Virus record (IMG/VR): IMGVR_UViG_3300020440_001565
Span: 1-64,000 of that record
Direction: 5' to 3' (one strand)
Source of the DNA: a virus
Lineage: Duplodnaviria > Caudoviricetes
Length of the DNA: 64,000 nt
Position numbers and translations under genes: made by a program. Below are positions 249-54,507 of this stretch, one piece after another (the first letter of the stretch is position 1; each line of letters opens with the position of its first letter). A model generated the notes under the pieces. That model worked only from the letters and a program-made list of their open reading frames with translations. It did not search any database and was not told the origin of the DNA.

Positions 249-649
249 TATTCGTCCTCTGGTTGATATTTGTAAGTCCATGGTGGCTTGAACCTAATTA
301 TTAAAACAGCCAAAGCAATAATGGCAATCGCACCTGCTTCATAAAGCAATGTAATTGGATCCATCTCTTTGCCTTGTAGTATTATCAATCTTGCTAGAGC
401 CGTCATTGCAATAAACAAAGGTAATGTAATTGGTATTCTATTACTTGCATAGAACACACCAACCATTCCTAGCACCTCTGTATAAATGAACAACAATAAC
501 AAGTCAGCTAATTTAACTGTACCAATTTCCCATATATGAACTAGTTCTTGTGCAGTTGCAATCAGTGTTAATATAGCAATCAAGGCCAACAGACCTTTTT
601 CAATTGTAATAATACTTTGAGTTGCGGTTGATTTAAGTTTCTTATTCAT
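248..649 (-). CDS. PsiE-like (phosphate-starvation-inducible) membrane protein
   Basis: Four hydrophobic segments with LLLFIYTEV and ITLPLFIAMTALAR motifs resembling PsiE; GAGGAG RBS before ATG at 649. Confidence 0.65.
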   Translation of the reverse strand: MNKKLKSTATQSIITIEKGLLALIAILTLIATAQELVHIWEIGTVKLADLLLLFIYTEVLGMVGVFYASNRIPITLPLFIAMTALARLIILQGKEMDPITLLYEAGAIAIIALAVLIIRFKPPWTYKYQPEDE

Positions 650-49904: not shown

Positions 49905-50525
49905 TTATTGCTTTATTTTAACATCTATTATTTGTTTTCGCAAGTCTAAAATACGTTTGTTTTTCCTTTTATTTCTTCTATTTCTTGCTTTTGATGTTTG
50001 GCTGAGTAGCCTGTCATGTTTGGTTAATTGTCTATTTTGGTCGTTAAACCATCTTACATATTGGATAGCTTTTGTTTTGGCTGTTCCATTTTTCTTATAA
50101 TCAACGTCAACTGGTGTAAAACTTGGATCTATATGACTAACTTTCTTTAGTTTAATATAGTAATTTCCTTTGTGAGCTATTATATCTTTTCCAATTTTTA
50201 CATTGTAATCTAAGCAATCGTCATCTACTTGTACTACAGGAACAGTACCTTCTGGAAACTCGTCAGGCCAGAAGTATCTAGGAAAATAGCTTTTATACCC
50301 ATCCCAAGATATTGTTTCGGTTTTGTCTGCTTCAACTTCCCAAGCCATGAAATAACCCGTGGTACCTCTATTAGTACCACGAGCTACTACTAATTCATCG
50401 CCATGAACATTTAGACGACCCGAACGCCAAACTGTGTGACTTATATCACAATCAGCCTTATATCTCGTTGTTGCCTTCTTTTCTTCGATCTTAACAAATC
50501 TTCTTTTGTCTGTTATCCCGACCAT
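49905..50525 (-). CDS. hypothetical protein with basic C-terminus
   Basis: 206-aa ORF. Confidence 0.65.
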   Translation of the reverse strand: MVGITDKRRFVKIEEKKATTRYKADCDISHTVWRSGRLNVHGDELVVARGTNRGTTGYFMAWEVEADKTETISWDGYKSYFPRYFWPDEFPEGTVPVVQVDDDCLDYNVKIGKDIIAHKGNYYIKLKKVSHIDPSFTPVDVDYKKNGTAKTKAIQYVRWFNDQNRQLTKHDRLLSQTSKARNRRNKRKNKRILDLRKQIIDVKIKQ

Positions 50526-50530
50526 TGATA

Positions 50531-50731
50531 TTACTTCGATTCGTTTTTAATGTCTTGTATCTTTTTTCTAAGACCCTTACCAATTTTTGTCATTTCTGAC
50601 AATGCTTTTCTGGCTCTTGTACCGGCCGCTTTATTGCCTGAGTCAAAGAACTTTGATACATTTTCTTTATATTCATCAATCTGTAATTCAATTTGCTTTC
50701 TTAATCCTTCATCTCTATTGTCTTCTGACAT
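50531..50731 (-). CDS. histone H1-like (Hc1-type) nucleoid protein
   Basis: GNKAAGTRARKAL motif; AAGGAG RBS. Confidence 0.75.
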   Translation of the reverse strand: MSEDNRDEGLRKQIELQIDEYKENVSKFFDSGNKAAGTRARKALSEMTKIGKGLRKKIQDIKNESK

Positions 50732-50756
50732 ATCATATCTCCTTTAAATCGAGTTA

Positions 50757-50947
50757 TCCTTGGAACTTCAACCATGATAGATGATCAATAAATCATACCT
50801 CCATCCCAAGGACCACTCTTATACATATCTAATACCAGGTATGTAAGCCGGAGTGAGTATCCGCTCATGGTATCAGTCCATGTGCGTGGGTCTACACCAA
50901 TATACCACTTCGCCCGCCTGTGGGTGAGCTGACCGATAAACGGCTAC
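50757..50947. ncRNA. candidate structured non-coding RNA between hfq and the Hc1-like gene
   Basis: GC-richer than flanks, no ORF; closing helix GTAAGCCG/CGGCTAC with four internal hairpins, plus TCCTTGG/CCAAGGA helix. Confidence 0.45.
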
Positions 50948-50949
50948 TA

Positions 50950-51159
50950 TTATTTATTATGATTAGCCTCGTTTGAAACGGGCATAATAGTGGATACGGC
51001 GTGTTTATTCACTAATTGTGTTACATTATCACGTTCTAATAAGAAGCTCTTATCATCGTGTTCTGTAATTTTACCAATCAGCTTTATGCCGTTTACTAGG
51101 AAGGCTGTAACTTCTTTTTTCTCTGCTATTATTTTTTCGAAAAATGCTTGTTGTGTCAT
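50950..51159 (-). CDS. hfq: RNA chaperone Hfq
   Basis: Sm1 AFLVNGIKLIGKI, Sm2 QLVNKHAVSTIMP; TATAAATA at 51197-51204. Confidence 0.88.
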   Translation of the reverse strand: MTQQAFFEKIIAEKKEVTAFLVNGIKLIGKITEHDDKSFLLERDNVTQLVNKHAVSTIMPVSNEANHNK

Positions 51160-51236
51160 TATGTAAAAATCCTGTTATTATATTTATTTATCCAGGTATT
51201 TATACTTTAGTTCTTGTGGATATTCCACTAGGTTCA

Positions 51237-51521
51237 TTAGTCCGAACACAATCTCTTTGCAAACTGTAGTTTCTGGTATGCTTCTTCAACAATAGGATAC
51301 CTTCTACGAAGATATTGCTCGTTCTTCTTTTGCCTCTCCCATTTGCGAAGTTTTCTTATCTGTGTCATATATGCTCCCGGAACAGGTGCTGAAGGTAAGT
51401 GATATTCTCCTCTATCAAATAAATCTTTTTGTGCAGGATCTTTGAAAGAACCTTGATTGCTTTGTAGTTGAGATTTTAATTTTTTGATTTCTTCTTTTAG
51501 ATCGTTTATCTCATCTTGCAT
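51237..51521 (-). CDS. hypothetical protein
   Basis: 94-aa ORF, N-terminal coiled coil. Confidence 0.6.
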   Translation of the reverse strand: MQDEINDLKEEIKKLKSQLQSNQGSFKDPAQKDLFDRGEYHLPSAPVPGAYMTQIRKLRKWERQKKNEQYLRRRYPIVEEAYQKLQFAKRLCSD

Positions 51522-51970
51522 TAGTTTCTCCTCATCTGCGAAATTTCAGTTGCCGCTTTTGAACCGTCTTTGTCATTTTCATCTGCAAATACTGGTACTA
51601 GATTGCTTTTATGCATCATAGCAATACCAACTAGTTTACGTTCACCTGTGTATTGCATTGCAGGTCTTTTAGTAGCCGTACCAATACCGCTTGTTGAATT
51701 ACTACTAGGGATATGCGGTATTTCTTTGCGATGGTTTGAATCTACATGATGCCACGGAGTACTAATGGCACGTGGCTCTGTTTTAGGTTTCCAGTTGCCA
51801 TGTACATATTCAATATACTCTGAAAGTTTCATTGTAGGAAGATTATGCTTCTTCCAAAACTTGTTTTGTTCACGCCAACCATCAACATAAAAAACATCAG
51901 GCTTTCTTTTGGCTTTCTTTTTCTTTTTAGTGTTTAAAGTGGTAAGACCACGTTCTAAATGCATAGTCAT
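51521..51970 (-). CDS. hypothetical phage protein
   Basis: 149 aa, YTGERKLVGIAMMHKSNLVPVF; consensus promoter upstream. Confidence 0.7.
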   Translation of the reverse strand: MTMHLERGLTTLNTKKKKKAKRKPDVFYVDGWREQNKFWKKHNLPTMKLSEYIEYVHGNWKPKTEPRAISTPWHHVDSNHRKEIPHIPSSNSTSGIGTATKRPAMQYTGERKLVGIAMMHKSNLVPVFADENDKDGSKAATEISQMRRN

Positions 51971-51976
51971 AATATT

Positions 51977-52005
51977 ATTATATTACCTTCCTTAGAATAT
52001 GTCAA
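51977..52005 (-). promoter_or_regulatory. consensus sigma70 promoter
   Basis: TTGACA-N17-TATAAT, 6 nt before ATG. Confidence 0.85.
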
Positions 52006-52142
52006 CGACCTTGTGAATTGTAGGCTTTAAAACTTCTTTTTCTGTGTTTGTTCATAGAAGAAAACTTTACTCTTTTTCTTTTACCTTGCGAAGTTCTTTT
52101 TTTTACTGTTTCATGTGCTACGAAATTCTTGTGTAATTTCAT
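52002..52142 (-). CDS. 46-aa very basic peptide
   Basis: MKLHKNFVAHETVKKRTSQGKRKRVKFSSMNKHRKRSFKAYNSQGR; GGAGG RBS. Confidence 0.7.
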   Translation of the reverse strand: MKLHKNFVAHETVKKRTSQGKRKRVKFSSMNKHRKRSFKAYNSQGR

Positions 52143-52154
52143 AACCCTCCTTGG

Positions 52155-52466
52155 TTACATTTTTATTGTTTCATCTTCATCTTTGTAATCATAAACTGGA
52201 AATTCTGCTTTGCCTTTTGATGGCTCATAGAATCCAACTGCTTTATCATTTTCTAAGATTACCCAATAGTTAACAGGATTTTCTGCTCCAGGCCAACCTT
52301 TATGCCCAACCATTCTTTGTCTAATTTTAACCTTGCTATATTGTTTTGCAGGAATATCTTTTTTCTTATACTTTCCCATATTCCACCACCACTGGAAATC
52401 TTCTCCAAGTGTTTCTTCCATTATTATTGGACGTGGTGTTGATTTTTCATTAAATGGATCTTTCAT
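52155..52466 (-). CDS. hypothetical protein
   Basis: 103-aa ORF; TTGACA-N16-TATAGT promoter at 52496-52523. Confidence 0.65.
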   Translation of the reverse strand: MKDPFNEKSTPRPIIMEETLGEDFQWWWNMGKYKKKDIPAKQYSKVKIRQRMVGHKGWPGAENPVNYWVILENDKAVGFYEPSKGKAEFPVYDYKDEDETIKM

Positions 52467-52524
52467 TGAGTACCTCTTTATTTTTATTATTACTGACTAT
52501 AACATATTTTAGAAATATGTCAAC

Positions 52525-52770
52525 TGCTAATTATTAGCAGATCATGGGTCATATAAGCCAACCAATCTTATTCCTTCGGTGGGGAGCAAGTCAATTCCAT
52601 CAACCTTAACGACTTGGCTCCCCCGGCTGTTAAGGTTGGGTAGTATCTATATTTCGGTCTATGATTCCCTGAGTCCTACCAGACTTGTAAATCCCTGTAC
52701 TGTAGTTCTTATGGCATCCAGTACACCAAACCGTTACTTTTGCTATGTCATGATCAACTCTCCTACTCTC
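52525..52770 (-). ncRNA. candidate structured RNA of about 230 nt with pseudoknot or alternative helices
   Basis: Ends pair (GATCATG/CATGATC); two long interleaved helices; TTGACA-N16-TAATAT promoter at 52780-52807; terminal palindrome at 52525-52541. Confidence 0.5.
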
Positions 52771-52925
52771 TATATTTTAATATTAACACAGAAAGCATAT
52801 CTGTCAACCAAAAACTTATAGACTATAAATATTTGTAGAAATATGAAAGCCCAGAACAAGCTGGGCTCTCAGTAAAGGTTGTATGTCGCCGTTGGGACAC
52901 TATTACTTATAGGATATTAAAAATT

Positions 52926-53627
52926 ATGAGCATTGATGGTAAAAATATTAATGAATTAGATAGTGAGACACGTAAGCTTCTCTTTTCAGTAACAAATAGT
53001 TTTGATATTCAAAACTTTAGAATCATAAGAGCTGATATCAAATGGAGAGGTCATCTTGTTGTTGAAGATGGTGATTTTGTATACAAAATAAAAGATGGTA
53101 ACAGTAATAGAAGATGTTGGAAACTTGTTAAAGAGTTTTTCGAAAATTGGCATGAACAATATTATGTGTCAACACAATTTCACGAAAACTGGATTTGTGA
53201 AAAGTTTAAAAAGTTGCCAGGACTGGGAGCTGACAGCTATAAAGATTTATCAAATCCTGAGACTGAATTATTTCGAAAAATGATTAACTGGCTTGAGGAT
53301 GAAATAATAAGGATTGCTATCAATGGATCTAAAATGAAAAGCAAAAGATATCCTACACAAGACTACATCTTAACTTGGTTTGATCCTAATATATGGAATA
53401 TTATATACGATGAAAAACAAGATAAGTTTACTCTTATTGACTTTGATCAAATTGATTGGATTGGCTATGATGCTTGGAAGATTGCTGTAACAGATATTAT
53501 TGCTTATAACTTTGGACTCGACAAAGTATCAAAAAAACTATTTTCCGATTCTATTCAAAAAAAATTAATATTGGCTATCAACAATGACTTTTCATTGTCT
53601 AGCGGAGAAAATAATAATGTCAGATAA
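52926..53627 (+). CDS. protein-kinase-like fold enzyme (APH/choline kinase-like)
   Basis: VYKIK lysine strand, DPNIWN (DxxxxN), LIDFD. Confidence 0.55.
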   Translation: MSIDGKNINELDSETRKLLFSVTNSFDIQNFRIIRADIKWRGHLVVEDGDFVYKIKDGNSNRRCWKLVKEFFENWHEQYYVSTQFHENWICEKFKKLPGLGADSYKDLSNPETELFRKMINWLEDEIIRIAINGSKMKSKRYPTQDYILTWFDPNIWNIIYDEKQDKFTLIDFDQIDWIGYDAWKIAVTDIIAYNFGLDKVSKKLFSDSIQKKLILAINNDFSLSSGENNNVR

Positions 53628-54507
53628 AATAAAAGTAGCCTGGTTCGGTAGTAGTCATGTACAAGGCGGATATGACACTTATGCAGATGAGTACGATGAT
53701 ATCAATCCTTTTCATACTTCTCCACCTGGATATTTTCAAAAATTGTTCAACGAATCTGACGTAGTCAATTATGGACATGGAGGAACTGGCATTGATTATA
53801 TGCAGTTGATTTTACCAGATGTCTTAAAAAATAATAGGCCTGATATTGTGTATGCTGAAATGAGTACATTGTTTCGTGGATCTTTATATTATGCCATGGA
53901 CAGATATGCTAGTGAAGTACTTGACGGTACATGGTATAACTATTCAACAAGAAGAGGACTACATAATCCGGTAGTGCAATCACAATATCATAGCACATAT
54001 GGTGACGGATTTGACTCATTAACATCAGCTATGGTCAAAAAAGGTACAGAAGAATCATATAAAAAATACGTTAAACAAATGACAAAAGTAAATCGAGTTG
54101 ATAGTATTGTACCAAGAAAAGTTTTCTTTGCAAATAGCGTAGGACGAGACTCAGTCGACTATATATCTGATTTAGTAATTTACTTCAAAAGAATAATTCA
54201 AATGACAGAGTATCTTGAACAACATAATATACCAGTATACTGGTTTCCTTGGTCAAACAAAGACTTTTTGTTCTTAAAAAAAAACAAACAGGCTTGGAAT
54301 ATTAAGAAAAAATGTGATGATCAAATAAAAATAGTAGATGGACTACAAAATCAAAGCTATTTTCAATATCTAAAAACAAAATATCAAAAAGACGTACATG
54401 ATTCTTTTACTGTTGACAGAGCTCATGTACAACACAAATTTAACAAAGAAGCTGTTGATACATTTTTTGCACCACATTTCAAAAAATTATTAAAAATTAC
54501 TTATTAA
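53617..54507 (+). CDS. SGNH/GDSL hydrolase-like protein
   Basis: WFGSSH block I, NYGHGGTG block II, C-terminal DRAH (DxxH); start at MSDKIK. Confidence 0.6.
   Translation: MSDKIKVAWFGSSHVQGGYDTYADEYDDINPFHTSPPGYFQKLFNESDVVNYGHGGTGIDYMQLILPDVLKNNRPDIVYAEMSTLFRGSLYYAMDRYASEVLDGTWYNYSTRRGLHNPVVQSQYHSTYGDGFDSLTSAMVKKGTEESYKKYVKQMTKVNRVDSIVPRKVFFANSVGRDSVDYISDLVIYFKRIIQMTEYLEQHNIPVYWFPWSNKDFLFLKKNKQAWNIKKKCDDQIKIVDGLQNQSYFQYLKTKYQKDVHDSFTVDRAHVQHKFNKEAVDTFFAPHFKKLLKITY

Follow-up and report, generated by a model that had tools for sequence, protein, structure and literature searches.

The locus considered here raises the question of whether a gene-free stretch in the genome of an uncultured marine phage encodes an RNA and, if so, what that RNA does. 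To our knowledge, only a few structured RNAs of phages have a known role, and minigenes have mostly been regarded as curiosities of phage lambda and of a few leaders. The window that we analyzed, 64,000 nt in length, comprises positions 1 to 64,000 of a 73.6-kb virus record in IMG/VR (IMGVR_UViG_3300020440_001565; Duplodnaviria, Caudoviricetes). Because a record of this length has an estimated completeness of only 20%, the phage genome must be very large. The stretch lies in a 459-nt gap between a minus-strand gene encoding a protein of 103 aa (52466-52155) and a plus-strand gene encoding a protein of 233 aa (from 52926), and its G+C content is 0.46–0.47 versus about 0.30 in the flanks. We find that the stretch does encode an RNA of about 190 bases, which is transcribed, folded, and conserved, is absent from the catalogs, and has a role that we infer below.

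Complementary Segments in a Gene-Free Stretch

A first-pass annotation made from the letters of the window alone had proposed a structured RNA with two interleaved helices in this stretch. The complementary segments on which it relied are present: CAACCTTAAC (52601-52610) is complementary to GTTAAGGTTG (52629-52638), and GGGGAGCAAGTC (52581-52592) pairs with GACTTGGCTCCCC (52611-52623) with one bulged C. The linkers of the two helices, henceforth H1 and H2, are 8 and 5 nt as described, with 0 nt separating the two middle arms. The arms TGTACTG/CAGTACA and GGTAG/CTACC are both found, and the letters of GATCATG (52540-52546) and CATGATC (52749-52755), proposed to pair the ends, are likewise complementary. 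All of these segments lie at the positions given, and a repeat search recovered the same arms. Perfect 10-bp stems with short loops were observed 11 times in the window where about 5 are expected by chance, so a single such stem is unremarkable, and the z-scores of the fold are modest (-2.3 for the minus strand and -2.1 for the plus strand). By themselves the complementarities are not compelling, and the case for a structure above chance rests on covariation among homologs and on transcription. The features of the locus, all on the minus strand, are listed in table 1.

The description of the stretch as free of long ORFs is roughly true, but an 80-aa ORF with a GTG start (52579-52821, plus strand) runs antisense to the RNA. 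The leader of the 233-aa gene contains a T4-type late box, TATAAATA (52824-52831, plus strand), followed by an 11-bp hairpin (52844-52871); a terminator scan gives this hairpin as a minus-strand terminator, but no minus-strand gene lies upstream of it.

Table 1. Features of the RNA and its promoters, in 5' to 3' order of the transcript.
Feature	Position	Strand	Details
Sigma-70-type early promoter	52780-52807	-	-35 TTGACA 52807-52802; -10 TAATAT 52785-52780
Transcription start (A)	52773	-	RNA 5' sequence AUAGAGAG; adaptor junction in X19 contig
Shine-Dalgarno-like AGGAG	52760-52764	-	8 nt upstream of AUG
Minigene AUG ACA UAG (Met-Thr-stop)	52743-52751	-	Invariant in the four type-A lineages found without it
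9-nt spacer CAAAAGUAA, stop codon to P1	52734-52742	-	9 nt in eight homologs with a 5' end
Three-way junction P1-P2-P3	52655-52733	-	Covariation and RNAalifold
P1 CGGUU/GACCG	52733-52729/52659-52655	-	Compensatory changes at 4 of 5 pairs; fully replaced in L033
P2 UGUACUG/CAGUACA, 16-nt loop	52725-52719/52703-52697	-	Compensatory changes at 6 of 7 pairs
P3a GAUUU/GAAUC	52694-52690/52667-52663	-	Invariant
P3b AGUC/GACU	52685-52682/52675-52672	-	Compensatory changes at 2 of 4 pairs
PK1, P3b loop GGUAG/CUACC	52680-52676/52643-52639	-	Two covarying positions
H1 (S1 of PK2) CAACCUUAAC/GUUAAGGUUG	52638-52629/52610-52601	-	Compensatory changes at 7 of 10 pairs; every cell pairs
H2 core (S2 of PK2) GGGGAGC/GCUCCCC	52623-52617/52587-52581	-	Two covarying pairs
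H2 inner extension AAGUC/GACUU	52615-52611/52592-52588	-	C52616 bulged; one covarying pair
Lineage-specific 3' extension	52495-52580	-	Cannot be aligned with other sequence types; traversed by RNA contigs
Second promoter TTGACA-N16-TATAGT and start 52488	52488-52523	-	Promoter at 52523-52496; serves the 103-aa gene

Transcription from a Sigma-70-Type Promoter

Many marine DNA runs contain the stretch, as do six metatranscriptomes, and the RNA evidence described here consists of contigs from four metatranscriptome runs that were placed on 50500-54500. The promoter that the first-pass annotation had predicted to point into the RNA on the minus strand matches the consensus at 10 of 12 positions in a promoter scan and has a 16-nt spacer that ends in TGT (extended -10); the same layout is found upstream of every full-length homolog. 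One contig, from run X19 (a PolyA/SMART-type library), spans 52495-52773 and then continues directly into CCCGTACTCTGCGTTGATACC, which we take to be the template-switch oligo of the SMART method, with its terminal GGG, in reverse complement. Because this sequence tags the end of a cDNA, 52773 is the 5' end of a minus-strand RNA, and as this end lies 7 nt downstream of the -10 box TAATAT, the predicted promoter is active. The same adaptor tag occurs at 52488 and 51970, so that all three junctions lie 7–8 nt past a -10 box; contaminating DNA would not be expected to give junctions of this kind. The start at 52488 is 8 nt past the -10 of the second promoter, which scores 11 of 12 matches, and bears out the suggestion that the next gene has a promoter of its own.

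In three other studies, contigs begin at 52346, 52438, or 52566 and extend to 52758, demonstrating that the RNA and the next gene are joined on some molecules. The X15, X16, and X17 contigs all stop at 52758, which hints only weakly at a second 5' end. No 3' end is readable in the RNA contigs; their poly-T or loose ends before 52037 and 52495 are at A-rich stretches and are most simply explained by internal oligo-dT priming. No contig from the four RNA runs covers 52778-52867, and gaps between contigs carry no evidential weight. Across the whole element the sole variant in the RNA runs examined is at 52550.

Other transcripts were seen on the minus strand nearby. The adaptor-marked 5' end at 51970 is on the A of the ATG of a 149-aa ORF (51970-51521) and 7 nt past the TATAAT of a TTGACA...TATAAT promoter (52005-51977); the mRNA for this ORF appears to be leaderless and to arise from a sigma-70-type promoter. 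A further adaptor-marked 5' end, at 50945, is 5 nt after the stop codon of an Hfq-like gene (51159-50950), and an RNA contig spanning 50628-50945 covers a noncoding stretch that is richer in G+C. Just after the 103-aa gene, a 46-aa ORF (52002-52142, minus strand) encodes an extremely basic, Lys/Arg-rich product, and the poly-T contig end at 52037 falls within it.

Comparison with Known Families and Identification of Homologs

The first-pass annotation could not assign the RNA to a known family, and an Rfam 15 search of the whole window at the gathering thresholds agrees, as it returned two tRNAs only. The RNA stays below the gathering thresholds of the Rfam 15 families, including riboswitches, ribozymes, tmRNA, 6S, Y RNA, GOLLD/ROOL, IMES, and others, and in a permissive search of 52400-52960 the best match inside it was to GOLLD with an E value of 6.3 and 9 bits versus a threshold of 150. 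ARAGORN finds no tRNA or tmRNA at 52500-52800, and a literature search with sequence words of the RNA gave no match. BLAST of the region and of the type B, C, and D sequences against cultured phage genomes gave no match either.

The starting clue to the homologs was a diverged contig end in the X17 metatranscriptome, which pointed to a conserved core. This contig matches only 52660-52693 (the 34-nt P3 core), differs in its flanks, has CUCACAAUAC as its H1 5' arm, and is a further expressed subtype of the RNA. Six loci (L011–L016) were recovered by pattern scans combined with the antisense-ORF protein as bait, and L029, L030, L033, and four type D loci by scanning for the promoter and minigene in combination. 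The minigene thus served as bait for types B, C, and D, whereas the four type-A lineages were found without it. Two of the exact-pattern scans gave no match and three further ones only L013; only three clusters were returned for the antisense-ORF "protein," and the 233-aa gene used as bait retrieved no relatives. Eight further homologs representing six further sequence types were identified in uncultured marine phage contigs, and the alignment set comprises nine loci of seven sequence types. The conserved unit is 193 nt (52773-52581). L011 is a close strain that is about 94% identical to the window.

The covariance-model E values of the nine loci of seven sequence types are 1e-20 to 1e-58, and a model built from type A only scores the distant homologs at 1e-20 to 1e-26. 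With the covariance model we found no second copy in any record and no copy in the relatives G001–G004, of which G001 is a complete genome of 328 kb. A match in G004 to 52772-52807 reflects only a shared promoter type and lies upstream of a protein gene. Four loci (L002–L005) share the flanking 103-aa gene with the window; their genes are tightly packed at this position and no such RNA is present. The L014 contig comes from a metagenome-assembled genome (MAG) labeled Flavobacteriales, but its genes are phage-like (MazG, peptidase M15, radical SAM), and its TTGACA/TATAAT-type promoters and Shine-Dalgarno motifs are atypical for Bacteroidota; the bin label is probably an artifact and no guide to the host.

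Compensatory Changes in a Three-Way Junction and Two Pseudoknots

Covariation was counted within the nine sequences for P1–P3, PK1, and H1, and separately for H2, which is out of register in the MAFFT alignment and whose pairs were counted by script. Over 36 pairs and nine sequences, all 322 cells (100%) are paired, and double-sided changes occur in 21 pairs. This result was not matched in any of 500 shuffles, and partners that were slid out of register give 0–4 double-sided pairs. A count restricted to type A agrees with that from all nine sequences, and RNAalifold independently recovers the nested helices. Compensatory changes are thus found in the interleaved helices as well as in TGTACTG/CAGTACA and GGTAG/CTACC, for which the first-pass annotation had recommended such a check.

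PK1 is absent from the alignment model, yet 100% of its cells pair. Its double-sided changes are A-U to G-C in L016 and G-C to C-G in L029, L030, and L033, in addition to one U-G pair. Covariation in both helices of PK2, at seven of the 10 pairs of H1, two pairs of the H2 core, and one of the inner extension, supports its reading as an H-type pseudoknot. The outermost pair of the H2 core is GC, AU, UA, or CG among the homologs and the fifth is AU or GC; in the inner extension one pair is GC or CG, and all of the variants are standard pairs. Two other candidate interactions were rejected: pairing of the P2 loop with the L3 linker is not conserved, and the best match in the window to the P2 loop as a target seed is a chance hit with 3 mismatches.

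These data also bear on the simplest alternative, namely that there is no RNA element and that the stretch is a plus-strand gene for the 80-aa protein or a set of chance complementarities. The antisense frame is open in all type-A homologs and is called by gene callers. It has 2–5 stops in L033 and L029, however, the substitutions compensate the RNA helices while altering the amino acids, and the frame crosses the promoter of the RNA, whose adaptor-marked transcript is on the other strand. The transcript, the covariation, and the broken frame effectively refute this reading.

Pseudoknot or Switch

With an S2 core of 7 bp (5 bp in L029 and L030), the loops of PK2 are 1–5 nt (L1), 1–7 nt (L2), and 9–13 nt (L3). 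By textbook geometry these lengths are workable and fit a model in which PK2 is an ordinary H-type pseudoknot on the 7-bp core. The first-pass annotation had suggested that short linkers may make the two helices mutually exclusive and thereby a switch. The interleaving holds, but exclusivity would apply to the inner extension and not to the 7-bp core, which would be compatible with H1 in every homolog. When the inner extension is formed, L2 is 0 nt and L1 is 2 nt in most homologs, and with about 12 stacked layers to span, geometry indicates that the extension and H1 would be sterically incompatible. In most homologs the inner extension is CUC/GAG; in the window it has been lengthened to AAGUC/GACUU by coordinated changes. 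The predicted stabilities of H1 (-11 to -14 kcal/mol) and H2 (-13 to -19.5 kcal/mol) are similar, and the helix favored in the global fold varies among the homologs. The inner extension of H2 may therefore compete with the pseudoknot, and a two-state element is compatible with the data but not required by them.

Such an element could act as a ligand- or factor-sensing switch, in which the junction and PK1 would form an aptamer-like pocket and the choice between H1 and the full H2 would set downstream read-through or translation. Types A to C show no variation in the unpaired bases that surround P3, PK1, and the linker from P1 to PK1, which would fit a pocket. The 3' strand of PK1 is 1 nt from H1, and the similar stability of the two helices and the coordinated change of the inner extension in the window also favor a switch. 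A U-rich tract follows H2 in L033, L029, and L012, but there is none after H2 in the window, L013, L014, or L016. In L029 and L030, moreover, PK2 reads as a plain and sterically easy H-type pseudoknot with an S2 of 5 bp and an L1 of 1 nt, and in every homolog the H2 core could coexist with H1. The homologs do not share a consistent class or pathway of downstream gene, as would be expected of a riboswitch, and no Rfam riboswitch matches the RNA even at an E value of 10. We consider a sensing switch unlikely.

A Two-Codon Minigene at the 5' End

A complete two-codon minigene, with a Shine-Dalgarno motif at a working distance, AUG, one sense codon, and a stop, is located at 52764-52743. All homologs with a 5' end have a purine-rich Shine-Dalgarno-like motif 6–10 nt before the AUG. 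The sequence between this motif and the AUG varies. In all eight of these homologs AUG-ACA-UAG is invariant and the gap between UAG and P1 is always 9 nt; in types B, C, and D the presence of the minigene follows by construction from its use as bait. Sequence conservation begins exactly at the AUG. The Shine-Dalgarno motif together with AUG-ACA-UAG is the most strictly conserved part of the RNA, and it had been overlooked in the first-pass annotation.

With ACA in the P site, the ribosome footprint would place P1 from about +16, at the edge of the mRNA channel. No recoded product is expected because most homologs have an in-frame UAA two codons past the minigene stop, and hopping from ACA to a later ACA in the manner of gene 60 finds no ACA near the start codon in the window. 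Predictions of minigene accessibility were uninformative. Pairing of the Shine-Dalgarno-like stretch with the 3' arm of H2 was rejected, as L014 and L016 have GGAG opposite CCCCC and the pairing is not conserved.

The four type D loci (L023, 12629-12900; L024, 639-900; L025, 8262-8530; L027, 6502-6770) have the same promoter type and Shine-Dalgarno motif and AUGACAUAGCAAGAG, followed by a different fold of three hairpins of about 170 nt and then by a gene start. Their variation is too low for covariation analysis, and the minigene module seems to be common to more than one fold.

The stimulators of frameshifting and read-through in IBV and MuLV are H-type pseudoknots that, like PK2, have two interleaved helices and short loops, and in those systems as in the RNA a fold follows the A-site codon at a short, constant interval, here 9 nt. 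Unlike in IBV and MuLV, the element next to the ribosome here would be P1 of a three-way junction, and there is no slippery site. A second comparable system is the LEE1 leader of EHEC, which is about 170 nt in length and in which the next gene is expressed optimally only if the two-codon minigene AUG-AAA-UAG is translated (PMC3262186). Both RNAs have a Shine-Dalgarno motif, AUG, one sense codon, and UAG within a long leader, and in LEE1 both the translation and the exact placement of the minigene affect the next gene. However, the LEE1 minigene is near the downstream start, whereas that in the window lies at the 5' end, with about 170 nt and two pseudoknots on its downstream side. The sense codons also differ (AAA in LEE1 and ACA in the window), LEE1 has no described conserved fold, and the hosts are unrelated.

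The 3' Side of the RNA and Its Downstream Genes

The first-pass annotation had described an independent ncRNA of about 230 nt closed by the pairing of its ends and by a palindrome. The RNA does have its own promoter, but the conserved unit is 193 nt, termination is not clean, and contigs extend into the next gene. In the window, the 3' extension contains a hairpin (AUAAG/CUUAU), CAUGAUC (52546-52540), which could pair with GAUCAUG (52755-52749), and the palindrome (52525-52541). Beyond H2 the sequence types differ throughout, and the RNA is thus not closed by a stem of 52540-52546 with 52749-52755. Nor is the palindrome a conserved closing element, as two changes break it in L011, which in addition has a 46-nt A+T-rich insertion in the 3' extension (about 7330-7375 in L011). 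The palindrome was also rejected as an intrinsic terminator: its stem is A+T-rich, a terminator scan did not report it, and contigs continue past it.

The RNA is arranged as a leader in five of the nine loci, representing four of the seven sequence types, with the Shine-Dalgarno motif of a gene 11–20 nt and its start codon about 21–33 nt after H2 (L012, L014/L015, L029/L030, and L033). In the window and in L013 a second near-consensus promoter separates the RNA from the next gene, as does a tRNA gene in L016, so that in these three lineages the module is not simply the leader of the next gene. The tRNA in L016 is tRNA-Trp(CCA) (289-362, minus strand), about 140 nt after the RNA with two small hairpins between. 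Across the family the downstream genes are mutually unrelated and encode proteins of 94–127 aa or a tRNA, or lie behind the second promoter.

This variety raises the possibility that the RNA acts in trans as a stand-alone molecule that disturbs host translation, with the fold serving to keep it stable and abundant. It would do so by trapping ribosomes or by releasing fMet-Thr-tRNA and tying up tRNA-Thr(UGU), as lambda bar does. The precedent consists of barI and barII (AUG-AUA-UAA), which are likewise phage two-codon frames with a Shine-Dalgarno motif and a strong early promoter and which act through the ribosome and peptidyl-tRNA. As cited in PMC2490762, the lambda bar minigenes inhibit protein synthesis through the build-up of peptidyl-tRNA and tRNA starvation (Hernandez-Sanchez 1998). 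In keeping with an action in trans, the RNA always has its own strong early promoter while what follows it varies, and AUG-ACA-UAG is identical across diverged folds, including the different fold of type D. On the other hand, the bar minigenes have no attached conserved structured domain, use different codons, and share no known homology with the RNA, and their toxicity is seen only in Pth-defective hosts. No Pth, Pth2, or matching tRNA gene is encoded in the fragment, which covers about 20% of the genome. No homolog has a terminator or a defined 3' end, the contigs that enter the next gene argue against a free-standing molecule, and the depth of contigs over the RNA is about that of the neighboring genes, contig depth being a poor measure. 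We regard an action in trans as a serious alternative that is nonetheless on the unlikely side.

The lack of a terminator and the read-through contigs could also be explained by processive antitermination in cis, as with HK022 put. Here the fold would bind to the very RNA polymerase that transcribes it and take this enzyme past terminators of the early region. The position of the RNA directly after a strong early promoter, the variable downstream genes, and conserved unpaired bases that could contact a protein are in accord with this. The minigene and its fixed 9-nt spacing would be left unexplained, however, and no terminators were identified downstream. We know of no resemblance of the RNA to put in size or sequence, which we count against a put-like function, and such a function is very unlikely.

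A Ribosome-Dependent Model and Its Implications

The reading that we prefer, with a probability of about 0.4, is that the RNA is a conserved module at the head of early transcripts in T4-like or giant marine phages that are uncultured, and that it acts in cis at the 5' end together with a ribosome on the minigene. What we observe directly is the transcript start, the fold, its conservation, and the spacing of the minigene; that a ribosome engages the module and that this affects the transcript is what we infer. In this model, a host ribosome would start on the minigene, advance one codon, and meet the stop codon, which would place P1 at the mRNA entry of the ribosome. Together, the ribosome and the knotted fold would then make up a bulky cap at the 5' end with an effect in cis: it would protect the transcript from decay initiated at the 5' end, set the loading of ribosomes on the next gene, or both. 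In the window, transcription does not stop at H2 but proceeds into the next gene, for which there is also a separate promoter. A purely passive cap would not need the many unpaired bases that are invariant in P3 and in the linker from P1 to PK1, which suggest a specific binding pocket. The lack of relationship among the downstream genes, and the second promoter or tRNA gene in three lineages, also weigh against this reading.

A more ambitious reading, which we put forward tentatively and consider rather improbable, is a ribosome-dependent RNA device in which the terminating ribosome docks on the double-pseudoknot fold and the RNA-ribosome particle is the working unit. If this were true, the device might seize early host translation capacity by sequestering ribosomes or tRNA-Thr, or it might instead gate the whole early transcript by the availability of ribosomes.

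The finding places a two-codon frame at a fixed distance from a conserved double-pseudoknot fold and behind a near-consensus early promoter. The RNA occurs in several lineages of ocean phages that are abundant and uncultured, is transcribed in the sea, and adds a well-supported family to RNA catalogs that had missed it. Being about 190 nt long and clonable, it also offers a way to ask whether "parked" ribosomes are a component of an RNA device in phages.
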